A stretch of DNA of 64,000 nt, from assembly GCA_963761035.1 (NCBI GenBank), contig CAVXFH010000002.1, positions 2,756,792 through 2,820,791 on the forward strand, given 5' to 3'. The notes under the pieces are model-generated. The model searched no databases, had not been told where the DNA came from, and saw only the letters and a program-made list of their open reading frames with translations. The stretch is from an uncultured Gammaproteobacteria bacterium (GTDB lineage Bacteria > Pseudomonadota > Gammaproteobacteria > DRLM01). Of the stretch, positions 37,763-56,177 are shown in pieces (the stretch's first letter is position 1; the number at the start of each line of letters is the position of its first letter). The position numbers and the translations under genes are program-made.

Positions 37763-38815
37763 GTGAAAATATTAATTACGGGCGGCGCCGGTTTCATCGG
37801 TTCAGCAGTGGTAAGGCAGTTCATTGGCGAAACCGACGCTACGGTGATCAACGTCGACAAGTTGACCTATGCCGGCAACCTGGAGTCGGTGGAAGCGGTG
37901 GCAAACAGTGCGCGTCATCACTTCGAAAAGGTCGATATCTGCGATGCGGCCGCGATACAGAGGCTGTTCGCGCAGTATCGGCCCAATGCGGTGATGCATC
38001 TCGCCGCGGAATCCCACGTGGACCGTTCCATCGACGGTCCGGCGCAGTTTATCCAAGCCAATATCGTCGGAACCTATACTTTGCTCGAAGCCGCTCGAAC
38101 TTATTGGCAGGATTTGCGGGGCGAGGAGAGGGCAAGCTTCCGCTTTCATCATATCTCGACCGACGAAGTCTACGGGTCGTTGGGGGCGGACGGTTATTTC
38201 GCGGAAGAGACACCCTATCAGCCCAATTCGCCTTATGCGGCGAGCAAGGCGGCGGCGGACCACTTGGCGCGAGCCTGGCACCATACGTATGGTTTACCGG
38301 TGGTGACCACTAATTGTTCCAATAATTACGGCCCTTATCACTTTCCGGAAAAGCTGATCCCGCTGGTGATCATCAAGGCACTGCGCGGCGAACCGCTGCC
38401 GATATATGGCAAGGGCGATAATATTCGTGATTGGCTCTATGTGGAGGACCATGCCCGCGCCCTGCGGCTGGTATTGGAGAAGGGGCGAGTGGGGGAGACC
38501 TACAATATCGGCGGTCGTAATGAGCGGACCAATCTCGAAGTGGTAGAAACAATCTGTGCGCTATTGGATGAACTGGCGCCGGACGGACGTTATGCGCCTC
38601 ATGCCGCGCTGATCAATTTTGTGGCTGACCGGCCGGGACATGACCAACGATACGCCATCGATGCCGGTAAGATAGAAAGGGAGCTGGGCTGGCGGCCCCG
38701 TGAAACCTTCGAGTCGGGACTGCGCAAGACGGTGAAGTGGTATTTGGATAATCGCGGATGGTGGGGACGGGTTTTGAGCGGCGTCTATCGAGGTGAACGC
38801 CTGGGGATATCGTAG
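37763..38815 (+). CDS. rfbB: dTDP-glucose 4,6-dehydratase
   Basis: [58 protein letters not shown]. Confidence 0.97.
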
Positions 38816-38852
38816 GCACATGGCTAATTCATATCGCGAAGCGATGCTGCAA

Positions 38853-38890
38853 TTCCCTCTCCCTCCGGGAGAGGGTTGGGGTGAGGGGAA
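38853..38890. repeat. BoxC-like palindromic element
   Basis: CCCTCTCCC-TCC-GGGAGAGGG perfect 9-bp stem followed by TTGGGGTGAGGGG, the architecture of enterobacterial BoxC. Confidence 0.75.
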
Positions 38891-38917
38891 CGATGTTGGT
38901 AAGAGGTTGGAATTGCG

Positions 38918-39835
38918 ATGAGCGTTAGCGCGCAAACTCAAATCCATATCCTGGTGACCGGCGCGTATGGTCAATTGGGCTTGGAGCTAATGCGCCGCGC
39001 CGCGCGGTACAGTGTCACGGCAACCGGATTGGATCGCGAGCAACTCGATATCACTGATGCTGAGGCCGTGCGGAGATACGTGTTGGAAAGCGGAGCGGCA
39101 GTCGTCGTCAATGCGGCGGCTTACACGGCGGTCGATAAGGCCGAATCTGAGCAGGCGGCGGCCTACGCGGTCAACCGCGATGGCGTTGCCCATCTCGCCG
39201 CGGCCTGTGCTGAGGCGAATATTCCCTTGATCCATGTCTCGACGGATTACGTCTTCGACGGCACCAAGACCTCGCCGTATGGCGAAGATGACCCCGTACA
39301 TCCAGTCAGCGCATACGGCGCGAGCAAAGAGGCGGGAGAGCGAGCGCTGCGCGGGATTTTGCCGCATCACATTATTCTGCGGACCGCATGGGTGTACAGC
39401 CCGTTTGGCCATAATTTCGTCAAGACCATCCTGCGCTTGGCGCGGGAACGCGAAAACTTGAGGGTGGTGGCGGATCAGCGCGGTTGTCCCACCGCCGCGG
39501 GCGACATTGCGGATATCGTCCTGAGCCTCGTACAGCGCATTGCTGGCGGTGTAGATATTCCGTGGGGAACTTACCACTACTGCGGCGTGGGGAGTACCAC
39601 CTGGTGCGAGTTAGCCAAAGCTATCGTGCAATCGGCGGCGCCGGCCTGGGGGCGCAGTGTGCCGGTCATACCGATCACTACCGCCGACTATCCCACGCCG
39701 GCCCGGCGACCGGCCAATTCGGTGCTGGACTGCGGCCGCATCGGCGAGAGGCTGGGTATTCATCCGCGTCCCTGGCAAGAGTCCTTGGAAGAGGTTGTGG
39801 CGGAATTATTAGCGGCGCACGAAGTTAGTAAATGA
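38918..39835 (+). CDS. rfbD: dTDP-4-dehydrorhamnose reductase
   Basis: TGAYGQLG, NAAAYTAVDKAE, STDYVFDG, YGASK, RTAWVY, ADQRGCPT, RRPANS. Confidence 0.96.
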   Translation: MSVSAQTQIHILVTGAYGQLGLELMRRAARYSVTATGLDREQLDITDAEAVRRYVLESGAAVVVNAAAYTAVDKAESEQAAAYAVNRDGVAHLAAACAEANIPLIHVSTDYVFDGTKTSPYGEDDPVHPVSAYGASKEAGERALRGILPHHIILRTAWVYSPFGHNFVKTILRLARERENLRVVADQRGCPTAAGDIADIVLSLVQRIAGGVDIPWGTYHYCGVGSTTWCELAKAIVQSAAPAWGRSVPVIPITTADYPTPARRPANSVLDCGRIGERLGIHPRPWQESLEEVVAELLAAHEVSK

Positions 39836-39840
39836 CTTAA

Positions 39841-39894
39841 ATCTCCGCTCCTTTCGCAAGGAGTGGCGGCGATAAAGCCGACGAGGGTGGATTG
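39841..39894. repeat. Single degenerate REP/BoxC-like unit
   Basis: CTCCGCTCCTT-TCGC-AAGGAGTGGCGGCG...GCCGACGAGGGTGGATT resembles the right-hand unit of the 28680 and 37604 elements. Confidence 0.45.
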
Positions 39895-39964
39895 CGTTTT
39901 CTAGGTCATGGCCGGATGATCCATTTACTTGAATGTCGAGATGCAATATATAAACAGCGATGCT

Positions 39965-40522
39965 ATGAATATTATTCAAACAGACTTGCCAGGAGTATTG
40001 ATCGTTGAGCCGCGCGTCTTCGGCGACGCGCGGGGCTTTTTCATGGAAACCTGGCAACAACGACGCTACGCGGAAGCGGGCTTGCCCGAGCGATTCGTCC
40101 AGGACAATATCTCGCTTTCGCGCCATGGAATTTTGCGCGGCTTGCACTATCAACATCCCCAAGGCCAGGGTAAGCTTGTTTATGTCTTGCAAGGTGAGGT
40201 GTACGATGTGGCGGTGGATATCCGCATTGGCTCGCCAAACTTCAGACGTTGGGTGGCCGCGACGCTCTCAGGGGACAACAAGCGCCAATTATATATTCCC
40301 CCAGGGTTTGCCCACGGCTTTTGCGTGACCAGTGACACAGCCCTGTTCGCCTATAAGTGCACGGAATTTTATAATTCCGCCGCGGAAGGGTGTGTGCGTT
40401 GGGATGATTTGGAGATCGGCATCGATTGGCCACTTCGCAATCCATTGCTGTCGGAGAAAGATAGCTTGGCCCCATTATTAAACGAAATTGCGCTAGAAAG
40501 GTTGCCCATCTATGCGCTATAA
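39965..40522 (+). CDS. rfbC: dTDP-4-dehydrorhamnose 3,5-epimerase
   Basis: EPRVFGDARGFF, FVQDN, LRGLHYQ, QGKLV, DVAVDIR, GFAHGF, YKC. Confidence 0.97.
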   Translation: MNIIQTDLPGVLIVEPRVFGDARGFFMETWQQRRYAEAGLPERFVQDNISLSRHGILRGLHYQHPQGQGKLVYVLQGEVYDVAVDIRIGSPNFRRWVAATLSGDNKRQLYIPPGFAHGFCVTSDTALFAYKCTEFYNSAAEGCVRWDDLEIGIDWPLRNPLLSEKDSLAPLLNEIALERLPIYAL

Positions 40523-40561
40523 AAATCAGGATCATTAGATGATCGTTAGAGAAAGCGCTCA

Positions 40562-41440
40562 ATGAAAGGCATTATCCTCGCCGGTGGTTCGGGCACGCGG
40601 CTTTATCCATTGACCCGGGCGATGAGCAAGCAACTGTTGCCGGTATATGACAAGCCAATGATCTATTATCCCTTATGTACGCTGATGCTGGCGGGCATTC
40701 GGGATATCCTGATCATTTCCACGCCCCATGATCTTCCCCAATATCAGCGCCTCCTGGACAATGGCGCGCAGTGGGGACTCAATTTCAGTTACGCGGAACA
40801 ACCCCGGCCGGAAGGATTAGCGCAGGCTTTTCTTATTGGCGAAAATTTTATAGGAACTGACACAGTCAGCTTGGTTCTCGGCGACAATCTTTTTTACGGT
40901 CACGGTTTAGCGAGAGTATTGCAGCAAGCCGCGCAGCGAGTGAAGGGCGCGACCATTTTTGGCTATTACGTGCGGGACCCGGAACGTTACGGTGTGGTGA
41001 GCTTTGACAAGGCGGGCAAGGTTATCGATTTTGAAGAAAAGCCTAAGAAGCCAAAATCAAACTATGCCGTAACCGGACTTTATTTCTATGACAATGACGT
41101 TATAAAAGTTGCTAAAGGCCTGAAACCTTCCCCGCGTGGAGAGCTGGAAATTACCGATATCAATAAATCCTATTTGACGCGCGGGGATATCAGCGTGGAG
41201 CTGCTCGGACGGGGAACGGCGTGGCTTGATACCGGAACTCATGAGTCCCTATTGCAAGCCGCGCAATTCATCGAAACCGTCGAATCTCGCCAAGGCCTGA
41301 AGATCGCCTGCCCGGAAGAAATCGCCTGGCGGATGGGATATATCGATACCGAGCAATTACGACGTCTAGCTGAGTCGCTGACACAGAACAGCTACGGACA
41401 ATATTTGATCGATACAATCAGCCGAGAACCCAAAAGATAG
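40562..41440 (+). CDS. rfbA: Glucose-1-phosphate thymidylyltransferase
   Basis: [54 protein letters not shown]. Confidence 0.98.
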
Positions 41441-42932: not shown

Positions 42933-43868
42933 ATGCATGTATCTATTGTTATTCGTACCTTAAATGAAGGAAAGCACTTGGATGCTTTGCTGAGGTGCAT
43001 CAAAAGTCAGGAGGCAGATGATCTTGATTATGAGATTATAATCATAGATTCGGGCTCAGAAGATCAAACATTGCATATAGCCGGATCTCATGGGTGTAAG
43101 ATTCTCCATATCACACGCCAAGAATTTTCTTTTGGGAGATCACTCAACATGGGGTGTGAAGCCGCATTGGGCGAGCTAATAGTCATAATTAGCGGCCATT
43201 GCATTCCGATGGACAATAAATGGTTGAAAGTGTTATGCGAACCATTACGAAATGGCATGGCCAGCTATGCCTATGGCCGGCAAATCGCCGGTCCGAATAG
43301 CCGTTATAGCGAGTACAGAATTTTTGCCAAGCATTATCCATGGCGAACTCAAATCCCGCAGAATGGCTTTTTCTGTAATAACGCCAATTCCGCTATCATG
43401 CGTTCCGCTTGGAAGCGATTCCGCTTTGATGAAGATCTGACAGGATTGGAGGATATGGATCTCGCAAGGCGCTTGATTAATGATGGCGGGAAGGTGGCCT
43501 ATATAGCTGAGGCATGCGTGCATCATTTTCACGATGAGGCGTGGCGATCTGTTAAGCGCCGTTTTGAGCGGGAGGCGATCGCGCTACAAAAGATCATGCC
43601 GCAGATTCATATTCATAAGCCAGATTTGGCCAGGTATATCATTTCAAGTATTTGGTTGGATTGGAGAAGCGCAAAGAAAGATGGTGTATTCTTCAATAAG
43701 GCGATTGAGATTGTCTTCTATAGATTTTACCAGTATTGGGGTAGTTATGTGGGCAATCATGAACATCGCAAACTTTCGCATTCACAAAAAGAGCAATATT
43801 TTTATCCTGACGGATTGAGGAATAAGCATGAAGAGGAAAATCATAGCGCTGCTACCTATGAAAGCTAA
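42933..43868 (+). CDS. GT2 glycosyltransferase (rhamnosyltransferase-like)
   Basis: SIVIRTLNE, IIDSGSEDQT, FSFGRSLN, GLED. Confidence 0.88.
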   Translation: MHVSIVIRTLNEGKHLDALLRCIKSQEADDLDYEIIIIDSGSEDQTLHIAGSHGCKILHITRQEFSFGRSLNMGCEAALGELIVIISGHCIPMDNKWLKVLCEPLRNGMASYAYGRQIAGPNSRYSEYRIFAKHYPWRTQIPQNGFFCNNANSAIMRSAWKRFRFDEDLTGLEDMDLARRLINDGGKVAYIAEACVHHFHDEAWRSVKRRFEREAIALQKIMPQIHIHKPDLARYIISSIWLDWRSAKKDGVFFNKAIEIVFYRFYQYWGSYVGNHEHRKLSHSQKEQYFYPDGLRNKHEEENHSAATYES

Positions 43869-44526
43869 CAGTGAGCGGGTAAAGGGAAAGAACTTTAGAA
43901 ATTTTAACGGAAAACCGCTGTTTCGCTGGATACTCGATTCCTTGTTACAAATAGAAGAAATAGACCGGATTGTCATCAATACTGACGCGCGCCACATTTT
44001 GGCAGACAATGGCTTGGTTGACGGTGGTAAGGTGGTAATTCGCGATCGTAGGCCTGAGATTTGTGGCGATTTGGTTTCCATGAATCTGATTATTTCCGAC
44101 GATGTCGAGAATGTAGATGCTGATATCTATCTGATGACGCACACTACAAATCCATTGATGAGCGCGAATACTATAAAGAGTGCGATAAATGCTTTCGAGA
44201 ACGCGGTCTCTGCCGGTATAGCGGATTCACTGTTTACTGTGGATAAGGTACAAACCCGGTTTTACAGGAAAGACGGCACTGCAGTTAACCATGAACCGAA
44301 TAATCTGATCCGCACGCAGGATCTCGAACCCTGGTTCGCAGAAAATTCCAATCTCTATGTTTTTACACGGGAAAGCTTTGCTAAAACAAATGCACGTATT
44401 GGTAAGAAGCCGATGATGTTCGAGAGCCCTAAATTTGAGTCGATTGATATCGATACGCCGGAAGATTGGGACTTGGCTGTCGTTGCCGCCCGATATTTAA
44501 CGGATCGACAGGTCCAAAAGCAATGA
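43828..44526 (+). CDS. Acylneuraminate cytidylyltransferase family (CMP-ulosonate synthetase)
   Basis: LLPMKANSERVKGKN...GKPL, INTD, HTTNP, RTQDL, IDIDTPEDW. Confidence 0.9.
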   Translation: MKRKIIALLPMKANSERVKGKNFRNFNGKPLFRWILDSLLQIEEIDRIVINTDARHILADNGLVDGGKVVIRDRRPEICGDLVSMNLIISDDVENVDADIYLMTHTTNPLMSANTIKSAINAFENAVSAGIADSLFTVDKVQTRFYRKDGTAVNHEPNNLIRTQDLEPWFAENSNLYVFTRESFAKTNARIGKKPMMFESPKFESIDIDTPEDWDLAVVAARYLTDRQVQKQ

Positions 44527-45455
44527 AGGTATTGGTAACCTGTCCACCTATGCTGGGCATGATCGACAGCTTCATACCAATTTTTACACAGCACGGCGTC
44601 GAAGTTACCGCACCTCGCGTCGTGCAAACATTATCAGTAGACAAACTTATAGAGTTTGTGCCCCATCACGATGGATGGATCATTGGCGACGATCCGGCAA
44701 CACGCGAAGTTTTTACTGCTGGTAAAGCCGGAAAGCTAAAAGCAGCCGTGAAATGGGGTATCGGCGTAGACAACGTTGATTTTGCAGCCTGCAATGAACT
44801 GGGTATTCCCATTGTGAATACCCCTAACATGTTTGGCAGGGAGGTTGCTGATATCGCGCTGGGTTATGTCATTGCACTGTCGAGGGAGACCTTTGAGATA
44901 GATCGTGGGGTACGGGCAGGGGAATGGCCCAAGCCCCGGGGGATATCCCTCGCCGCGAAAACAGTGGCGCTGATCGGATTCGGTGATATTGGAAAAAATA
45001 CCGCCAAGCGCCTGTTGGCCGTGGACATGAAGGTGATTGCCTATGACCCTGCCGCAAAGTCATCAGCGGAACTGACCGCAGTTGAAATGGCGACTTGGCC
45101 TATGCGAATTGAAGAGGCCGATTTTATCGTTGTCACTTGCTCCTTAACACCTTCAAGCCGTCACATGCTCAATGACGAGGCCTTTGCCAGAGCAAAGGCT
45201 GGCGTGCGCGTGATAAACGTTGGGAGAGGGCAAGTGGTTGATGAGAATGCGCTTGAGGCTGCTCTCAAAAGTGGCAAGGTCTATTCAGCTGCGCTTGATG
45301 TTTTTGAAATAGAGCCGCTTCCGATTAATTCTTATCTGCGCACTCACCCTCGCTGTGTATTTGGGTCACATAACGCTTCCAATACAGCCGATGCCGTAGA
45401 ATGTACCAGTCGGATTGCAATAGACAAGCTTTTCAGATTATTGGGCATAGTTTGA
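44523..45455 (+). CDS. D-isomer-specific 2-hydroxyacid dehydrogenase (SerA-like)
   Basis: KWGIGVDNVD, GFGDIG, NVGRG, ALDVFEIEP, SHNAS. Confidence 0.88.
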   Translation: MKVLVTCPPMLGMIDSFIPIFTQHGVEVTAPRVVQTLSVDKLIEFVPHHDGWIIGDDPATREVFTAGKAGKLKAAVKWGIGVDNVDFAACNELGIPIVNTPNMFGREVADIALGYVIALSRETFEIDRGVRAGEWPKPRGISLAAKTVALIGFGDIGKNTAKRLLAVDMKVIAYDPAAKSSAELTAVEMATWPMRIEEADFIVVTCSLTPSSRHMLNDEAFARAKAGVRVINVGRGQVVDENALEAALKSGKVYSAALDVFEIEPLPINSYLRTHPRCVFGSHNASNTADAVECTSRIAIDKLFRLLGIV

Positions 45456-45460
45456 TTATT

Positions 45461-46315
45461 ATGTCTGTTAAAGAGGATCAGCGGATTCGAGTCTATCGTC
45501 CCGACAGCAGAGTCAGAGAGGGCGCATTCGCCGCTCTTCGCCATTTATCAGCTGAAATCTGGGGCTTTCGTAGCCATATACGAATTGTATTCGAGGAGGA
45601 GTTTCGCGCCACCTACTCCGGAACAGGGTTAGGCATATTTTGGAACTATGCGCTACCTCTTGTTCCGTTGACTATCTATTGGTTCTTATCTAGGCTACGT
45701 GTTTTTCCAAATTTCGACGGTGTTGATAGCGCAACCTTTCTGACCTTTGGCATAAGCTTGTGGTTCTTCTTTGTTGGCCTCGTCCAAGTGCCGATCCAAA
45801 TTGTGCAATCGCGTAATAAGGAGGCTATGAAAACCGCTTTTCCGTTGAGCGCGTCCATCGTATCGGGGTTTGCTAAATTGCTATTCGATACACTAGTAAG
45901 ACTAGCCCTTGTAACCATTGTTGTCATATCGACAAAGAGCTGGCCAACTTGGCAAGGGCTATTGCTACCATTGGTTTTGTTGCCAGCTTTTATATTTTTT
46001 CTTGGCATAGGACTTGTGCTTGGCATACTTAACGTAATCTACAATGATATCTCTCGTGTTGTGAATATTGCGTTTCAATATGGTATTTTCATCAGCGGCG
46101 TAATATTTCCCCTATCAGATTTTGGCCTATTATCTACATTGAATCAGCTTAACCCTTTTGCAGTTTTTATTAATGTTAGTCGCTCAATCGTCTTTCGGGG
46201 AATACTCGATAACTCATATGCGTACTTGGCAATGTCAGCCGCTGCAGTATTGGTATTCTTGTTTTCAGTCCGCCTGTTCTACATCATGGAATATCGTGTG
46301 AGAGGAATTAGCTGA
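45461..46315 (+). CDS. wzm: Polysaccharide ABC transporter permease
   Basis: Y.GTGLGIFW, about 6 TM segments, DI..V, LNP motif; translationally coupled to wzt. Confidence 0.88.
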   Translation: MSVKEDQRIRVYRPDSRVREGAFAALRHLSAEIWGFRSHIRIVFEEEFRATYSGTGLGIFWNYALPLVPLTIYWFLSRLRVFPNFDGVDSATFLTFGISLWFFFVGLVQVPIQIVQSRNKEAMKTAFPLSASIVSGFAKLLFDTLVRLALVTIVVISTKSWPTWQGLLLPLVLLPAFIFFLGIGLVLGILNVIYNDISRVVNIAFQYGIFISGVIFPLSDFGLLSTLNQLNPFAVFINVSRSIVFRGILDNSYAYLAMSAAAVLVFLFSVRLFYIMEYRVRGIS

Positions 46316-47577
46316 TGTTGACGCAATCCGACACCGTACTGGAAGTGGAACATATCTCCAAACTTTATTCACGGGCTCGAAGCGCAACCCGTCAAAGATT
46401 GACTCGCACCTTTGGATCGACAATCCTAGGACGTTTGCCAACGCCTTTTACTGACCTGCAAAAAGGTGAATTCTGGTCGCTCAAAGACGTAAGTTTTTCA
46501 CTACGGCGGGGAGAGTCGCTGGGTGTTATTGGCTTCAACGGTGCGGGGAAGACAACACTGCTTCGACTTCTTGCGGGGCAACTTTTGCCGGACGAAGGTG
46601 AAATACGTGTACTTGGTAAGACGGCGGCGATGATAGATCTCACTGCTGGCTTTCAGATGACGGCGAGTGGAAGACAGAATATATTTCTTCGCGGCGCAAT
46701 GCTTGCCCGAAGTAAAGAAGAAATTGCCGCAACTTTTGAAGAAATTCTCGATTTCGCAGAACTGGGTGATGCGATCGGCGCACCGGTTGCGACCTACAGC
46801 TCCGGCATGCTCATGCGTCTTGCCTTTTCCATTATGGTGTTCTTGAAGGCAGATATATTTTTTATCGATGAAATTCTTGCTGTTGGTGATTTTCGCTTTC
46901 AGCAGAAATGTCTGGAACATTTCAGGGCCATACGGAAACGGGTCGCTATAATGCTGGTTTCGCACTCTATGTATAGCATTAGATCATTTTGCGATCGAGT
47001 TATTGTTTTACATGATGGCCTTATTACCTTCGAAGGTAAGCCAGAAGACGCGATTCGTGTTTATGAGCAACTGAATAGTCCAAACGCATTACATAAAGAA
47101 AAGGCGCCTAATCAGGTAACGTTCCTTGGGCCACAGTTCCACAATACTCGAGCCATAGAAGAAGTGGAGCATTATTGGTGTGATGCGAATGGAAAACCCA
47201 TCAGCGAGATATGCCTAGGAGATAGTCTATATTGCAAGGTAATCTTCAAAATAAACCATAAAGCTAACAACCTAATTATCGGAGTACCTGTTTGGACAGA
47301 GGAAGGTACATTTTTGACCGGGCTTTCTACCGAACTCCAGAATGTGAGAATGGATGTGGAAGCCGAAAATAAGGTTATCTTCCTCCTCACGGTACCCAAT
47401 ATTGGCTTGAATCCGGGTGTGTATTTTTCTAATGTTAGCATTTTGGATGGTCACGAATTTCTTTACCGCAATAAAAATTCTTCTTTGACAGTTACATCAA
47501 CACGTGGTCGTTTCTGGGGATTGGTAACGATGGAGCATTATTGGCAACGACAAACTTTAGATGCGGAGTTACTTTAA
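46315..47577 (+). CDS. wzt: Polysaccharide ABC transporter ATPase with C-terminal (Wzt_C) domain
   Basis: FWSLKDVSF, GFNGAGKTT, TYSSGM, IDEILAVGD, VSH; about 170-aa C-terminal extension. Confidence 0.93.
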   Translation: MLTQSDTVLEVEHISKLYSRARSATRQRLTRTFGSTILGRLPTPFTDLQKGEFWSLKDVSFSLRRGESLGVIGFNGAGKTTLLRLLAGQLLPDEGEIRVLGKTAAMIDLTAGFQMTASGRQNIFLRGAMLARSKEEIAATFEEILDFAELGDAIGAPVATYSSGMLMRLAFSIMVFLKADIFFIDEILAVGDFRFQQKCLEHFRAIRKRVAIMLVSHSMYSIRSFCDRVIVLHDGLITFEGKPEDAIRVYEQLNSPNALHKEKAPNQVTFLGPQFHNTRAIEEVEHYWCDANGKPISEICLGDSLYCKVIFKINHKANNLIIGVPVWTEEGTFLTGLSTELQNVRMDVEAENKVIFLLTVPNIGLNPGVYFSNVSILDGHEFLYRNKNSSLTVTSTRGRFWGLVTMEHYWQRQTLDAELL

Positions 47578-49421: not shown

Positions 49422-52400
49422 ATGAAACCTTCTCCAATATTAAGCATTGCAATTCCCGCATATAATAGACCATTTGAATTGAAATACTGCCTCGATCGTT
49501 TTGTTGCCCAGATTATAGGTAAATATGAAAATGAAATTGAGATAATAATTAGCGATGACAGTTCTCCAAACGATAGCCTGAAAGATATTCGAAAAATTGC
49601 CGAGCGATACTCATTTATTAGATACAGAAAATATGCCGATAATATCGGCCTAGAAAAAAATTTAATCAAGTGTGCTGATGAGTGTATTGGAGAGTATTTG
49701 TGGATATTTGGTGATGACGATTTTCTTGAGCAAGATGATGGGCTTGATTATGTAATGAGTTTATTGCGCGAGGGTAAATACGAATTCTATGTGCTTAATA
49801 GAGTACGAAGGAATTCTAATCTCTCTAAGCTGATCTCAAATAACTGGATGCGACTTGATGCCGCGAAAACTTATGCCTTTTCCGGATTACGTGAATTCTG
49901 TGTGAGGCATGGCTTTATCAGCATTATTGGTTTTATATCTGTCAACATTTTTCGACGATGTCCATTTCAAGAGATTGATGCATCCAAGTATTTTGGAACC
50001 ATGTACCCGCAACTCGGCGCCATGGTTGAAGCTTTCTATGATAAGAAAACACTTCTGGTGGGCCGCCCTCTTGTCTGTCACAGAACACAAACCATTGATG
50101 AAAAAAAGGCAGCATTGGGTAATAAGCGCGCTGAATCGGATTTTATGGCGGATGTTAAACTAAGAAATGCAATTTACTTTAGCCATCCCTATATAAAGAT
50201 GCTTTCTGAGCTTATAAGCAGAGGGGCTTTTCTACCTGAGGATATTATACGAATTCCGGAGAATACGGTAATCAATGGGCTGCTCATTGATTTTCTTATT
50301 CAAACTGTTGCACTTAGTCAGGAATTACATGTAGGCGTTGATTCTGAGGCTTGGAGGAATACTAGAAAATTCTTTGATGCTTTACCGCTCGATTCGGCAA
50401 GACGCAAGCAGATTGAAGTACTATTTGCAAAACAGTTCGATGTTCCCCGAACGTATTCAGTTGCAGAGATTTCGACTCATAGAGTCGATGGTCATGAATT
50501 AACTATTTCAGTAATCTCTCCGAGCTTTAACCAGGCTGAGTTTCTAGCGGAATGCCTGTCATCTGTTCGTGATCAGACCTACAAGCCCCTAGAACATCTC
50601 GTATTTGATCCAGGTTCACATGATAGAAGTCGCAATATTGCTGCGAGCTATCCTCATGTAACACTCATCACCGAACCAGACTCTGGCCAGTCTGATGCTA
50701 TAAATAAGGGCTTATTGCGCGCTCGCGGTGATATCATTGCTTGGCTTAACTCAGATGATTGCTTTGCTCACTCGAAAGTTTTCGAGCTAATTGTCCAACG
50801 CTTTTTACAGGCGGATGCGCCAGATATTGTGTATGGAAGAGGAATTTACATCAATGAGACTGGTGAGAAGCTGCGGGATGTCTACATAAATAAGGACCCT
50901 GCATCTCTGAGTTGGCGTTTTCAACAAGAAGATGGAATTTTGCAGCCCGCACTTTTTATGCGAAGAAGCGTAATTGAACGCGTCGGTCTTCTGCGTAACG
51001 ATCTTCATTACTGCATGGATTACGAGTATTGGATTAGATGCGTGAAGGCTGGAATTAAGTTTGTGTATTTAGACAAGGTTCTGGCAAATGCTCGCTATCA
51101 CATCAGCAACAAAACCTACGGAATGCGAGGAAAAAGCTATTCCGAAGTTTGTGACATGATGAGGGAACATTTCGGATATGTTAATCATACTTGGATAAAG
51201 CGCTATGCTGAATTCCTGGTAGAGGGATACGATGGCGTACTTATGCACGCCGGAAATGCCATTGTTAGAGATGTTGATAATTTTGATATAGCCTATCGAA
51301 AATTGCTTTTAGCTTACAATGGTTCTCATGATACCTACCACCTGCTGGAGCATGGGGCTTCCAAGAAAGGGCTAGGAGATACTCTACGAGAAATGACGAC
51401 ATTAGGGATCAAGCCTCTGGTACCTTGTAAAGAAATCCCCACTGAGCAAGTTCAAGCGCCAGGCTGTATTCCTTATACTGTAGGTACTAGGAGGTGGGCA
51501 TACGATGCAAAATGGAAAGCGGTGCAAATCGCCAGGACACATGAATTCTTTCGAGATCGCATAGCTCATCGCTGTCGCGATACCTGTGTCATCGTTGGCA
51601 ATGGCCCGAGCTTAAATAAAACGAATTTGTCTCTGCTGAAGGATCAAGATGTCATCGTTTCCAACAATGCATTCTTGAGTCCTGAACTTCTTATGTATGC
51701 GACTTACTATACTGTAGTTAATTATCTTGTAGCAGAGCAGAGCTCTCAACACATTAACAGATTGGAGGGTGTACATAAAGTTTTACCCTATTGGCTGGCA
51801 TATTGCTTGAATCCTGACCAGGATACCTACTTTGTAGATGCGGTTGGTCGCGCAGAATTCAGCAAAGACATTTTTAATAATATGTCATGGCGACATACTG
51901 TTACTTTTTTTAACTTGCACCTTGCATATGGGCTTGGATATCGCAGGGTGGTGATGATTGGGTTTGATCATGGCTATAAACAGCCGAATAGCATTGTGGA
52001 ACAGGATGTTATTCAAAGCTACGAGGACGACGAAAATCATTTTCATCCAGGCTATTTCCGTGGCAAAAAATGGCAAGCAGCCGATGTTGGGAAAATGGAA
52101 GAAATGTACCTTCTCGCTAAAATTGGATTTGAGGAAGATGGTCGCACAATCATCAATGCCACGGCTGGTGGCAAATTAGAACTCTTTCCTAGGATGCCTC
52201 TGGAGCAAGCATTGAAGCTCGGTCAAGTTCGTAAAAATATTCCTTTGCTTCATTCAACCCCTGCGATAGCTATTCCTAAAATCGGGCCATTCTTGCGAAG
52301 CGTGCATGCTCACTGGGATGAATCTAATGGGATCGCCGAGTTATTTTCGGAAAAACTGTCTGGCACAATGATTGATGTAGGTGCCCATTATGGTTCAGCA

Positions 52401-53705
52401 CTCTTTCCATTCCTAAACAAGAGTTGGAAAATTTTCGCATTCGAGCCAGATGACAAGAACCGTCACGAGTTGCTAGTACACCTTTCGAAACATGAAAACA
52501 AGGAATTGGTTACACTTGACGCACATTGCGTGAGCAATGAAACCAAGAAGGGAGTCTCATTCTATCGTTCCGAACAGAGTACGGGTATTAGCGGTCTATC
52601 GTCCTTTCACGAAAGCCATATCGAGGCACAGCGGGTGGATACCGTTTCACTAGCTGATTATTTCCAAGACAAGCCTATGCCTGCGGTCGATTTCCTCAAG
52701 ATCGATACCGAGGGGCATGACTTATTCGTGCTACAGGGTTACCCATGGGATCACGACAAACCGGCGGTGATTGAGTGCGAATTTGAGAACGCCAAATCTG
52801 TTCCTCTTGGTTATACCTACCATGACCTTGCACGATTTCTGGTGGGCAAGGGTTATACAGTTTATGTTAGCGAATGGCATCCCATTATCCGCTACGGTAT
52901 TCGTCATGATTGGAACCGACTGATGCATTACCCTTGCGAATTGTCCGACCAAAATGGTTGGGGAAATCTACTCGCATTCCGCGATCCCATTGATGAGAAA
53001 CATATCATTACAGCAGTTCGCAAGGTACTTAAGATTGATAGAAGCAACCCGGAACATATAATGGATGAACGAATTAATACCGCATCTCAGCTTGATAAGA
53101 CAATGAGTAAAAATCAAGAAATATCTGTGAGAAATTATAAAAGATTAAAATATTTGTATAATTGTTTTGCTGTATGGGCTAGAGATAATCACCCTTTGGT
53201 GTTTCGTGCTGGGCAATTTATTACGAGATTGCTACGGTTCATTAAACGAAATGCCATTCTTATATCAACATTGCTTGTTATTGCATTCGCGTTAATAATA
53301 TTTCCTATGTTTATACAATTAGAGCCTAATGAGCTAATCTTTTGGTATTTTTCAGGTCTGTTTATTATTATGATGGTATTTGCCGTCTTAGGAGCGAGAA
53401 CGCTCGTAACGTTAAGGTTACGAAGCAGTCAGCTCTCCAGCAAGCAAGACCAGTTCTCCAACAAGCAGGACCAGCTCTCCAGCAAGCAGGACCAACTCTC
53501 CAGCAAGCAGGACCAGCTCTCCAGCAAACGGACCAGCTCTCCACAAACAGGACCAACTCTCCAGCAAACAGGACCAGCTCTCCAGCAAGCAGGACCAGCT
53601 CTCCAGCAAGCAGGACCAGCTCTCCAGCAAGCAGGACCAGCTCTCCAGCAAGCAGGACCAGCTCTCCAGCAAACAAGATCAGATATCATCCAATTTTGCT
53701 TTTAA
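49422..53705 (+). CDS. Multidomain glycan enzyme: GT2 + GT2 + DUF115/MptE-like (sialyltransferase-like) + FkbM methyltransferase + 2 TM + heptad repeat; apparently frameshifted inside the repeat and continuing into 53737-54432
   Basis: LSIAIPAYNR...WIFGDDD; ISVISPSFNQ...WLNSDD...CMDYEYW; VIVGNGPSL...MIGFDH; IDVGAHYG...LKIDTEGHD; two hydrophobic helices near 53250-53390; QLSSKQD repeats. Confidence 0.9.
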   Translation: MKPSPILSIAIPAYNRPFELKYCLDRFVAQIIGKYENEIEIIISDDSSPNDSLKDIRKIAERYSFIRYRKYADNIGLEKNLIKCADECIGEYLWIFGDDDFLEQDDGLDYVMSLLREGKYEFYVLNRVRRNSNLSKLISNNWMRLDAAKTYAFSGLREFCVRHGFISIIGFISVNIFRRCPFQEIDASKYFGTMYPQLGAMVEAFYDKKTLLVGRPLVCHRTQTIDEKKAALGNKRAESDFMADVKLRNAIYFSHPYIKMLSELISRGAFLPEDIIRIPENTVINGLLIDFLIQTVALSQELHVGVDSEAWRNTRKFFDALPLDSARRKQIEVLFAKQFDVPRTYSVAEISTHRVDGHELTISVISPSFNQAEFLAECLSSVRDQTYKPLEHLVFDPGSHDRSRNIAASYPHVTLITEPDSGQSDAINKGLLRARGDIIAWLNSDDCFAHSKVFELIVQRFLQADAPDIVYGRGIYINETGEKLRDVYINKDPASLSWRFQQEDGILQPALFMRRSVIERVGLLRNDLHYCMDYEYWIRCVKAGIKFVYLDKVLANARYHISNKTYGMRGKSYSEVCDMMREHFGYVNHTWIKRYAEFLVEGYDGVLMHAGNAIVRDVDNFDIAYRKLLLAYNGSHDTYHLLEHGASKKGLGDTLREMTTLGIKPLVPCKEIPTEQVQAPGCIPYTVGTRRWAYDAKWKAVQIARTHEFFRDRIAHRCRDTCVIVGNGPSLNKTNLSLLKDQDVIVSNNAFLSPELLMYATYYTVVNYLVAEQSSQHINRLEGVHKVLPYWLAYCLNPDQDTYFVDAVGRAEFSKDIFNNMSWRHTVTFFNLHLAYGLGYRRVVMIGFDHGYKQPNSIVEQDVIQSYEDDENHFHPGYFRGKKWQAADVGKMEEMYLLAKIGFEEDGRTIINATAGGKLELFPRMPLEQALKLGQVRKNIPLLHSTPAIAIPKIGPFLRSVHAHWDESNGIAELFSEKLSGTMIDVGAHYGSALFPFLNKSWKIFAFEPDDKNRHELLVHLSKHENKELVTLDAHCVSNETKKGVSFYRSEQSTGISGLSSFHESHIEAQRVDTVSLADYFQDKPMPAVDFLKIDTEGHDLFVLQGYPWDHDKPAVIECEFENAKSVPLGYTYHDLARFLVGKGYTVYVSEWHPIIRYGIRHDWNRLMHYPCELSDQNGWGNLLAFRDPIDEKHIITAVRKVLKIDRSNPEHIMDERINTASQLDKTMSKNQEISVRNYKRLKYLYNCFAVWARDNHPLVFRAGQFITRLLRFIKRNAILISTLLVIAFALIIFPMFIQLEPNELIFWYFSGLFIIMMVFAVLGARTLVTLRLRSSQLSSKQDQFSNKQDQLSSKQDQLSSKQDQLSSKRTSSPQTGPTLQQTGPALQQAGPALQQAGPALQQAGPALQQAGPALQQTRSDIIQFCF
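53430..53679 (+). repeat. Coding tandem repeat, 12 units of consensus CAGCTCTCCAGCAAGCAGGAC (21 bp)
   Basis: Units counted directly; units 5 (53514-53533) and 6 (53534-53553) are 20 nt, the other ten are 21 nt; a degenerate 13th unit follows (53680-53700). Confidence 0.95.
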
Positions 53706-53736
53706 TTCTTCCGATTTTCAATCTTTCAATCGGCGC

Positions 53737-54432
53737 TTGAGGAAGGAACATGTTGATCTTTTTCTGAATGAGTGGGCGGATAAATTAGGCCTCAAATTAA
53801 CACCAAGATCTCTTGCATATTTAGCTCATCGTATTTGTACATTGGAACAGATATGCAAGGGGCGTATTGCCACGAGCATTGAAAATATGGTTTTGCGAGT
53901 ATTAGTTTCTTCCGCAGTAAGAAAGAATAAATTACGGGTTCTGGAGATAGGAACCTTATTCGGAATTGGATTAGCCGCAATATATGAATATTGCAGCCCA
54001 CGTTTTGAAGAGGTACGGCTCGCCGCAATTGATCCACTCGATGGATATTATGGAAAAGGTGCTCGAGATATTATTACAGATGAACCGATTAGCGAAATGA
54101 CATTCAAAACGAATTTTAAGATGGCAGGCATACCGGAAGATGAATATTCTCTTATTACAGCTATGAGCTCTGAGTCCTGTGCGATTGAAGCGGCAAATTT
54201 GAATCAATGTGATGTTTTAATTATTGATGGAGATCACACATATGAAGGAGTGAAGACAGATTTCGAGTATTACTGGAAAGCTGTTAACTTTGGAGGATAC
54301 ATAATTTTTGACGACTATGATTCATCTGAATGGCCAGATATAAAGAAATATGTAGATGAAGCAGTTATCGGCAAGGATGGATTGATTCTTGTGGGCGCTA
54401 GTTTCCGTTCCGCGGTTTTCAAAGTTGTTTGA
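53737..54432 (+). CDS. Class I SAM-dependent methyltransferase (Methyltransf_24-like); probably the C-terminal domain of the 49422 gene
   Basis: LEIGTLFG, IDP, IDGDHTYEGVKTDF, GGYIIFDDY; TTG start with no clear RBS, and its frame is open upstream through repeat units 7-12. Confidence 0.85.
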   Translation: MRKEHVDLFLNEWADKLGLKLTPRSLAYLAHRICTLEQICKGRIATSIENMVLRVLVSSAVRKNKLRVLEIGTLFGIGLAAIYEYCSPRFEEVRLAAIDPLDGYYGKGARDIITDEPISEMTFKTNFKMAGIPEDEYSLITAMSSESCAIEAANLNQCDVLIIDGDHTYEGVKTDFEYYWKAVNFGGYIIFDDYDSSEWPDIKKYVDEAVIGKDGLILVGASFRSAVFKVV

Positions 54433-54619
54433 CATAAACTCTATAAATATTTTCCATAATTAAGCCATATCTAAAAATTCGATCCTGTCGGATGGTTAAG
54501 AGCAAGATAGCTAGAATGCGGAACTTACACGGTGTAAATGGGAACATTGATCATGCTGCAGCCCGTAGGTATAGTTTCATTGGATATTCTATAGTGTCTA
54601 TTGGCCGAGTCTGGAAAAA

Positions 54620-55378
54620 ATGAATACAAGTAATAGAAGATCTGCGTTGATAACAGGGTGTAACGGTGGTATTGGTAAGGTGCTATGCCAGGAATTCAGA
54701 TCCGCAGGCTACTCGGTAATTGGCTCAGATATACAAGCGAAAGAGGAGACAAACTGCGATCTTTATCTTCGCTGTGATTTGATGGAGCTTGTGTCTAATA
54801 CTAAAACACGGAAATGGTTCCAGGATGCTGTAAGCAGTTTTGCTGGCAAACAGGCCGCCCCTTTACAAGCAGTCATTAACAATGCAGCCTATCAGGTTGT
54901 CAAGCCTATACGAGATTTGTCAATTACCGAATTCCAATCATCCCAGCAAATCAATCTAGTTGCTCCGTTTGTGCTGACGCAGCTTTTCGAGTCTTCTCTT
55001 AGGGAAGCGGAAGGCAGCATTGTAAATATCGGTAGTATCCATGCCCGGTTGACTAAGCCCGGGTTTTGTTCATACTCCACCTCTAAAGCAGCCCTTTCAG
55101 GGTTAACCAGAGCATTGGCGCTAGAATTTTCCGGGGAAATTACAGTTAATACCATCCTGCCGGCCGCAACTAGAACGGAGATGTTACTCGCAGGGTTTAG
55201 CGAGCATCAGGAAAAATATGCGGAACTGGAATCCTATCACCCGGTAGGCCGAATTGCTGAGCCGAGAGAAATTGCGCGCCTGGCACTGTTTCTCTGTTCA
55301 GAAAGTGCGCGTTTTATCAACGGCTCGGAGATTCCTATCGATGGGGGAATAGGAGGACGTTTGCATGATCCGGCTTGA
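54620..55378 (+). CDS. SDR family oxidoreductase
   Basis: TGCNGGIG, NNAA, NIGS, YSTSK, IPIDGG. Confidence 0.92.
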   Translation: MNTSNRRSALITGCNGGIGKVLCQEFRSAGYSVIGSDIQAKEETNCDLYLRCDLMELVSNTKTRKWFQDAVSSFAGKQAAPLQAVINNAAYQVVKPIRDLSITEFQSSQQINLVAPFVLTQLFESSLREAEGSIVNIGSIHARLTKPGFCSYSTSKAALSGLTRALALEFSGEITVNTILPAATRTEMLLAGFSEHQEKYAELESYHPVGRIAEPREIARLALFLCSESARFINGSEIPIDGGIGGRLHDPA

Positions 55379-56177
55379 TGGAGCGTTACGGCCTGGTGGT
55401 CGGCTGGATCGTTTCAATATTTACAGGATTGGTGCTCGCCTTATATTGGACAGACTCGTTTGGGATATTTCTTTTCAAGCTAGAAAGCAGCGTAAGAAGC
55501 TGATGGCGCTGCGGAACGCTCATATAGGTGAAAAGTCCATTATTCTGTGCAACGGCCCGAGTTTGGTTGATGTCGACTTTTCTAGTATTGGCGATATCTT
55601 TACCTTTGGGCTGAACAAGATCAATCTTCTTTTCGATGAAATAAAGTTCAGACCCTCCGCCATTGTTGCTGTTAATCCATTTATAATCGAACAAAACGCG
55701 AAATTCTTTTCAGAAACTGACCTTCCTCTATTCCTGGATCAAGAAGCTAACCATTTCGTTATTCCTCCTCGCGACAATATCATATTGCTGCATTCTTGCA
55801 ATATTCCATACTTTGCGCGCGACTGCTCCCTAAGTATCTTTCAAGGCTATACTGTCACCTATGTGGCCCTCCAGATTGCATATCACATGGGTTTTAGCAA
55901 GGTTGCACTTGTTGGTTGTGATCATGACTACTACTCAGTTGGTACGCCAAACGTCATAGGCTATAATGAAACCAAAGATATAGGCCATTTTTGTGATGAT
56001 TATTTCTCTCCGAAGCAACCTTGGCAATATCCGGATTTGAAGGCAAGCGAATATTATTACGACTTGGCCAGGCGTAGTTATGAATTCGATGGACGAATGA
56101 TTGTCAATGCTAGTACTAAGACCAAACTTGATGTATTCCCTATGATGCATTTAGATGACTTTATACATGATGAATAA
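55365..56177 (+). CDS. DUF115/MptE-like (Maf / sialyltransferase-like) protein
   Basis: ILCNGPSL, FGLNKI, TVTYVALQIAYHMGFSKVALVGCDH; paralogous to domain 3 of the 49422 protein. Confidence 0.8.
   Translation: MIRLDGALRPGGRLDRFNIYRIGARLILDRLVWDISFQARKQRKKLMALRNAHIGEKSIILCNGPSLVDVDFSSIGDIFTFGLNKINLLFDEIKFRPSAIVAVNPFIIEQNAKFFSETDLPLFLDQEANHFVIPPRDNIILLHSCNIPYFARDCSLSIFQGYTVTYVALQIAYHMGFSKVALVGCDHDYYSVGTPNVIGYNETKDIGHFCDDYFSPKQPWQYPDLKASEYYYDLARRSYEFDGRMIVNASTKTKLDVFPMMHLDDFIHDE

Follow-up and report, generated by a model that had tools for sequence, protein, structure and literature searches.

The question raised by the 64,000-nt stretch analysed here (the window, from an uncultured gammaproteobacterium) is whether a tandem array of 21-bp units inside a large putative glycan-synthase gene encodes a spacer that sets the length of the glycan, and whether gain or loss of units could change that length. 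When related genes are compared, spacer length in the family appears to evolve in steps of whole repeat units, which are gained or lost. This pattern across the family is of more interest than the claim specific to the window, which is weakened by two frameshifts. The elements of the gene, as assembled, are the following.

49422..53705, + strand: 1427-aa open reading frame (ORF) with two GT2 modules, an MptE-like stretch, an FkbM methyltransferase, two transmembrane (TM) helices and the array; it ends out of frame
53253..53396, + strand: membrane hairpin found by hydropathy (residues 1273-1333), with helix 1 at 53253-53315, a 6-residue loop and helix 2 at 53334-53396
53430..53679, + strand: tandem array of 12 units of 21 bp (two of them 20 bp) encoding QLSSKQD-type heptads, which forms the whole spacer from helix 2 to the methyltransferase domain
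53514..53553, + strand: units 5 and 6, 20 bp each, making two frameshifts by the unit split and frame reading
53680..54432, + strand: Methyltransf_24 (TylF/MeT1-like) sugar O-methyltransferase domain, with relatives' homology starting from about 53704, before the TTG at 53737
53703..53705, + strand: stop codon of the shifted frame, inside a stretch conserved in the other frame

The array was detected with Tandem Repeats Finder (TRF), and its units were then split by hand. TRF called 53430-53672 with a period of 21, 11.7 copies, 93% matches, 1% indels and a score of 416, the consensus unit being CAGCTCTCCAGCAAGCAGGAC, while the split by hand gave 12 head-to-tail units inside the gene (53430-53679). 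Five of the 12 (units 3, 8, 9, 10 and 11) match the consensus exactly, and units 1, 2, 4, 5, 6, 7 and 12 deviate from it at 1-3 positions each; units 5 (53514-53533) and 6 (53534-53553) are one base short, and all others have 21 bp. The guanine-plus-cytosine (GC) content of the array is 57.6%, compared with 41.8% in the upstream gene and 38.8% in the downstream methyltransferase part, and the GC fraction at third codon positions is about 0.9, compared with 0.39 and 0.31, respectively. An earlier note, made from the letters of this DNA alone, had pointed to near-identical units, including the identical units 8-11, and to an array richer in GC than its flanks, and both statements hold, with unit 3 identical as well. 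The extent given there (53430..53700) starts correctly and runs about 20 nt past the array end. Its case for a recent expansion stands because the units are nearly identical to one another, but not as drawn from base composition, since high GC alone shows just amplification of a GC-rich unit; its assumption that one frame is kept throughout fails, as the two 20-bp units shift the frame twice. The array is thus a real, recently amplified repeat. Minus-strand ORFs of 84-102 aa within it were rejected as genes, being by-products of the repeat.

The long ORF carries GT2 modules at residues 11-113 and 363-521, an MptE-like stretch at residues 716-749, which remains under the Pfam cut-off, and an FkbM methyltransferase at residues 985-1145, the latter also being the only NCBIfam family above its cut-off. 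The membrane hairpin is flanked on both sides by Arg/Lys-rich stretches, so that by the positive-inside rule both of its ends are presumably cytoplasmic. The domain behind the array matches PF13578 (Methyltransf_24) with 50.7 bits against a gathering threshold of 26.3, the TylF match being weaker. Folded from the single sequence, the methyltransferase part was poor (predicted local distance difference test, pLDDT, 45), and a model from a 45-sequence alignment was used instead, with a pLDDT of 94.2. Its best structural match in Foldseek was the mycobacterial polysaccharide O-methyltransferase MeT1 (E 3e-10), followed by the rhamnose O-methyltransferases CalS11 and SpnH and also by NovP and MycE; a sequence search of the PDB with the domain gave nothing significant (best E 0.03-0.6). 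The modelled domain thus has a sugar O-methyltransferase fold. The six in-frame heptads ahead of it (residues 2-45) were predicted as one helix with a pLDDT of 86-94. A two-copy complex prediction of spacer plus methyltransferase scored 0.01; it was run without controls and counts neither way.

Both the query covering FkbM to the anchor and the methyltransferase query retrieved long fused proteins. In three of them (P0005, P0006 and P0037) the order is FkbM, two TM helices, heptads or coiled coil, an FNRR motif and the methyltransferase. In 227 homologues the domain stands at the C-terminus (median tail 9 aa); it is preceded by at least 60 aa in 220 and by at least 450 aa in 160; a TM segment lies upstream of it in 191. 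The spacer between the TM segment and FNRR in these 191 homologues has a median length of 146 aa (range 37-632 aa), and a profile of homologue spacers found coiled-coil matches in the PDB (apolipoprotein A-IV, LSD1 tower, gp26, SMC and myosin). Reading the rows of the 25 best-scoring homologues by eye showed a juxtamembrane motif, EF-x-ERE(H/Y)-x-x-RQ, after helix 2 in 20 or more of them; the motif rests on this reading, since a strict regular expression found it in 12 of the 191 only. In the window the motif does not occur in any frame.

The spacer is also where tandem repeats concentrate. TRF was applied to 160 related loci, of which 146 remained after removal of 14 duplicates, and the 118 with a TM-defined spacer were used for counts. 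Spacers contained 30 arrays in 29 loci (0.48 per kb), against 17 in the remaining parts of these loci (0.029 per kb), a density about 17-fold higher. Because related loci are not independent, the statistic overstates the significance and its nominal P value means little, but a 17-fold contrast is still large. The periods of all 30 spacer arrays are divisible by 3, those of 18 by 21 and those of two by 33. Examples are 21 bp x 6.1 in L101, 21 bp x 4.0 with 100% identical units in L143, 42 bp x 7.1 in L039 (a Hyphomonas) and 33 bp x 3.6 in L094. In six Chloroflexota-type loci (L143, L124, L147, L069, L114 and L054) the spacer is barely more than 3-4 heptads and sits, as in the window, right after helix 2.

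Further evidence comes from close relatives, for which loci were grouped at 78% or higher nucleotide identity in the methyltransferase part and spacers were compared at about 87% or higher. Of the pairs formed in this way 13 could be evaluated, three others having no TM segment or motif by script, and spacer length differed in eight of the 13. In one pair, P0006 and L094, the proteins come from separate assemblies and agree at all 895 of the 895 residues aligned, apart from one 22-aa gap equal to two 11-aa (33-bp) units; the gap reflects either a clean polymorphism in copy number or an array collapsed during assembly. L032 and L034 (97.7% identical) have four and three units of 34 aa, L111 and L112 (92%) have three and one units of 27 aa, L017 and L111 (87%) are separated by the same 27-aa units plus 9 aa, and L015 and L105 (90%) differ by one heptad. 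In the remaining three pairs (L037/L132, L134/L140 and L041/L146) the difference is 48, 37 and 15 aa, respectively, and does not correspond to a clear repeat. Such unit differences are leads rather than proof.

The unit of the window resembles the last heptad ahead of the domain in P0006, and the simplest history would be that its ancestral spacer was lost and rebuilt as 12 copies of its last heptad. The nearest relative, a Nitrospirae metagenome-assembled genome (L013), has a domain 61% identical to that of the window and, in syntenic position, a downstream short-chain dehydrogenase/reductase gene 73% identical; at the same place it carries a 42-bp, 2.4-copy repeat, with the methyltransferase in a separate 382-aa ORF. 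In the large protein of L013 (1-3765), FkbM is followed by the TM hairpin, a short coil and then an MptE-like domain, and the N-terminus of the 382-aa coil-plus-methyltransferase ORF looks like a degenerate helix 2 with the juxtamembrane motif. The arrangement suggests that the L013 gene was split by a duplication-insertion. Two more loci, L099 and L100, are identical to L013 in the methyltransferase part, each with the 42-bp, 2.4-copy repeat, and lie inverted about 28 kb apart on one 2.1-Mb metagenome contig; this layout stems either from a large inverted duplication or from faulty assembly.

The genes upstream of the long ORF place it in a glycan locus.

37763..41440, + strand: dTDP-rhamnose genes of the RmlB, RmlD, RmlC and RmlA types, from a domain scan of the neighbourhood
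45401-46315, + strand: Wzm-like ABC-2 permease (PF01061)
46315-47577, + strand: Wzt ATPase (PF00005) with a C-terminal Wzt_C carbohydrate-binding domain (PF14524)

The Wzt_C match reaches 48.3 bits against a cut-off of 30.4, and the neighbourhood also encodes additional glycosyltransferases, methyltransferases and a cytidylyltransferase. By gene content this is a glycan cluster dependent on an ATP-binding cassette (ABC) transporter, of the kind in which Wzt reads the cap at the chain end. The cluster lies in a low-GC island at about 41-60 kb (37-48% in 2-kb windows, the genome having 56.3%), while the upstream rml genes (37.7-41.4 kb) share the genome composition; the island's composition suggests horizontal acquisition of the glycan cluster. 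MptE-like modules were seen at 51567-51668 and 55365-56177, one of them weakly, below cut-off, like WaaZ (a transferase of Kdo, 3-deoxy-D-manno-octulosonic acid), and the cytidylyltransferase (43828-44526) is weakly like PseF/KdsB; together they hint at a CMP-activated ulosonic acid in the glycan or capping it. The genome consists of two contigs (3.02 Mb and 34 kb). The second (C1, 34,233 bp) has a GC content of 56.4%, like the chromosome, and a long-ORF coverage of 0.78 compared with 0.90.

The mechanism which we propose starts from the domain order of the enzyme in relatives: glycosyltransferase modules, FkbM, two-helix anchor, helical spacer and Methyltransf_24. The integral hairpin would keep the polymerase-type modules at the membrane, and the helical spacer, possibly as an oligomeric coiled coil, would project into the cytoplasm with the sugar O-methyltransferase, the putative chain terminator, at its tip. 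The spacer would thus set the distance between the distal methyltransferase and the membrane-bound polymerising modules, and only chains of sufficient length would be methylated and capped and then passed to Wzm/Wzt, Wzt carrying the cap-binding domain. A heptad of alpha-helix measures about 1 nm (7 x 0.15 nm), so the 12 units would span about 12.5 nm. Since the cluster encodes Wzm/Wzt and its Wzt has a cap-binding domain, we infer that a length-setting spacer, working by analogy on the ruler principle of WbdD and WbbB, is the best explanation, and we give it an even chance. The broader proposal is of a widespread family of single-polypeptide glycan synthases with an evolvable ruler built from DNA repeats, in which slippage or unequal recombination would shift the modal polysaccharide length heritably in steps of about 1 nm or larger; we regard it as possible, though doubtful. 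Its units would comprise 7, 11, 14, 34 and other numbers of residues, with the 12-heptad array of the window the most extreme found. Copy number might then vary within a population, and it is conceivable, as pure speculation, that such variation acts on glycan length and serves to evade phage.

The ruler had been proposed in the earlier note. In its favour, the array occupies the place of the homologues' spacer, which links anchor to methyltransferase and is helical and coiled-coil-like, the locus is ABC-dependent with a Wzt_C domain, and the spacers of the family are repeat-rich, mostly in heptad multiples, and vary by whole units between close relatives. Several points weigh against it. As written, with the frame broken inside the array, the array connects nothing to the methyltransferase, and a tethered methyltransferase may be missing from this organism altogether. 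Five of the 13 close pairs have unchanged spacers (L102/L103, L165/L167, L153/L154, L030/L126 and two Mesorhizobium isolates, the latter gap-free and identical at 1238 of 1240 residues), and most of the loci compared are metagenome assemblies, where arrays can collapse. Genome and metagenome scans gave no sequence of the same species (best identity 63%), and the four same-genus genomes G001-G004, among which G003 and G004 are 83-84% complete, gave no match with the methyltransferase query. WbdD and WbbB are absent from the 39 profile matches, the nine sequence matches and the best 50 of at least 500 Foldseek matches. The terminator could also be another enzyme, the cluster having five other methyltransferase genes or domains, two MptE-like modules and the cytidylyltransferase. 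Finally, each QLSSKQD heptad has one hydrophobic residue (Leu), and the repeat-encoded heptads of NeuO, which are similar in make-up, are disordered, a triple coiled coil being excluded (PMC3046976).

The most serious alternative is a dead gene, in which both deletions exist in the organism, production of the methyltransferase domain has ceased and the array persists as a degenerating relic without present function. As assembled, two 1-bp deletions, 14 nt apart and with a net shift of -2, uncouple the methyltransferase from the long ORF. Units 1-4 and 7-12 encode QLSSKQD-type heptads, a frame which the 1427-aa ORF leaves because units 5 and 6 have 20 bp: it reads QLSSKQD for 4.5 units, one unit in the second frame and GPALQQA six times in the third, and stops 26 nt past the array end, at 53705. 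The QLSSKQD frame of units 7-12 is open through 53680-53736 into the methyltransferase ORF (53737-54432), making 338 codons with no stop; its first possible start is the TTG at 53737, already inside the conserved domain, with no ATG, GTG or TTG upstream. All 150 representative homologues listed align from query residues 1-23, except a fragment (P0278, from residue 59), most of these alignments beginning before the TTG (query residue 20) and that of the nearest relative at nt 53704. Because homologues align well upstream of the TTG, the downstream ORF is the C-terminal domain of the upstream gene; it is in frame with units 7-12 but, unlike in the fused homologues, is cut off from the ORF in the window. 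Programmed frameshifting was rejected, as a net +1/-2 shift would be required and no known signal was seen.

Assembly error and genuine recent inactivation appear about equally likely as causes of the break. The deletions, 14 nt apart within a repeat and in 5 kb of coding sequence that is intact everywhere else, have the look of a local error in the consensus. The methyltransferase frame, moreover, is fully open over 250 residues in AT-rich DNA (about 39% GC) and keeps 47 of 47 columns invariant over the 15 sequences of alignment A1 (the window sequence included), it is the sole copy that this query detected in the genome, and none of 26 neighbouring ORFs of at least 150 aa was seen broken. 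For a real break speak the split forms that occur in nature (L013) and the same sequence contexts, read without deletion in units 7 and 12, which argue against a systematic base-calling error. The 38 ORFs of at least 1000 aa in the genome count on both sides, and with the 447 of at least 500 aa they show that long ORFs are otherwise intact. Three soil-metagenome runs found in a public-run search share small portions of the sequence words, and their contigs placed on 52000-55000 were four short pieces (53331-53485, 53569-53619, 53869-54019 and one unrelated piece), none of which covers units 5-6 (53514-53553). Taken together, a dead gene is nearly as probable as a living one. If the break is real, the synthase of this organism lacks a tethered methyltransferase, and in-frame slippage could not mend it because a 21-bp unit never alters the frame. 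The gene in the window has thus either been assembled wrongly or been disrupted recently, and listing it as two genes in an annotation would conceal the fusion.

A second alternative to the length-setting spacer is a passive linker, which merely tethers the methyltransferase, its length having no function and its low-complexity helix tolerating slippage repeats. The 17-fold range of spacer length (37-632 aa) could mean that length is unconstrained, some periods are not multiples of a heptad (27, 48, 57, 75, 81, 102 bp and others), and the single Leu per heptad and the non-coiled NeuO heptads fit this explanation too. It accounts poorly for the 18 of 30 spacer arrays with periods divisible by 21 and for homologue spacers that look like canonical coiled coils, a coil beside the terminator being an established ruler in this pathway. 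In addition, the window spacer, probably rebuilt from one heptad, would measure about 108 aa if read through, within the family interquartile range of 92-211 aa. On balance, a functionless linker seems unlikely.

In the third alternative the heptads would raise the catalytic efficiency of the adjacent enzyme in proportion to their number and would not measure distance. The precedent is NeuO, encoded by the Escherichia coli K1 prophage CUS-3, in which repeat-encoded RLKTQDS heptads adjoin a polysaccharide-modifying enzyme and the activity rises linearly with heptad number in a graded and heritable way (PMC3046976). Each NeuO heptad has two positive charges, proposed to bind polyanionic polysialic acid, whereas QLSSKQD is net neutral, and the spacer here joins a membrane anchor to the enzyme instead of forming a free end, which makes such tuning improbable. 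Least probable of all is an over-expansion of a few true units by the assembler: the stretch 53486-53568 has no independent read support, but a simple one-unit over-expansion would not give the position-specific variants of units 1, 2, 4, 5, 6, 7 and 12, a two-contig genome suggests reads far above 250 bp, and the public-run contigs match 53331-53485 and 53569-53619 exactly.

If the length-setting spacer proves true, the number of units would be a simple genotype-to-phenotype handle on glycan length, and the family would offer a ready set of natural ruler variants together with a mechanism for graded surface variation, the evolvable ruler being a graded counterpart of on/off phase variation. 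Among the literature matches listed, neither repeat-encoded rulers nor a family combining glycosyltransferase (GT), FkbM, TM hairpin, coil and Methyltransf_24 was found described, though a description may still exist. The injectisome protein YscP and the tape-measure proteins of phages are similar in principle, since there protein length sets polymer length and natural variants differ by internal repeats; they are unrelated and measure protein assemblies, not glycans.

The closest parallels are the coiled-coil rulers that mark terminator proteins of the ABC-transporter-dependent pathway, above all WbdD, in which insertions into the coil raise and truncations lower the modal chain length (PMC11231755; PMC5082667). 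Like WbdD of E. coli O9a and Klebsiella pneumoniae O3, the system in the window belongs to an ABC-dependent pathway whose Wzt has a carbohydrate-binding domain, and its methyltransferase would be membrane-distal on an extended helical spacer, with the polymerising glycosyltransferases expected to be membrane-proximal. Unlike in WbdD, the order is reversed (anchor, spacer, enzyme), an integral two-helix hairpin takes the place of the amphipathic helix as anchor, GT2 polymerase-type modules are in the same polypeptide, the enzyme is of the Methyltransf_24/TylF/MeT1 type with no kinase, and the spacer is a tandem repeat at the DNA level. WbbB of K. pneumoniae O12 likewise unites glycosyltransferase modules, coiled coil and terminator in one polypeptide, and ORF6 of K. 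pneumoniae O7, from the locus of a rhamnose-containing glycan, unites two GT2 modules with a coiled coil and a methyltransferase (PMC11231755). Compared by their descriptions, both differ from the window gene in that the terminator occupies the N-terminus and the GT modules the C-terminus; a TM hairpin is not mentioned there. The likeness to WbdD, WbbB and O7 ORF6 is one of architecture, not of descent, and none of the three occurs among the sequence or fold matches listed.

NeuO is the one documented case of a heptad tract encoded by tandem repeats beside a polysaccharide-modifying enzyme. Its unit has 7 nt, so that slippage also acts as an on/off switch, whereas slippage of the 21-nt unit alone never alters the frame; its poly-psi domain is N-terminal and disordered and tunes catalytic efficiency rather than distance. 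Coiled-coil rulers of O-polysaccharides are known from a few enterobacterial models, in which length was altered by engineered insertions and deletions. In the present family, whole-unit spacer differences were found among near-identical relatives in Alphaproteobacteria, Nitrospirota, Chloroflexota, Planctomycetota and Cyanobacteria, and if these spacers act as those of the enterobacterial models do, nature already performs the ruler-length experiment.

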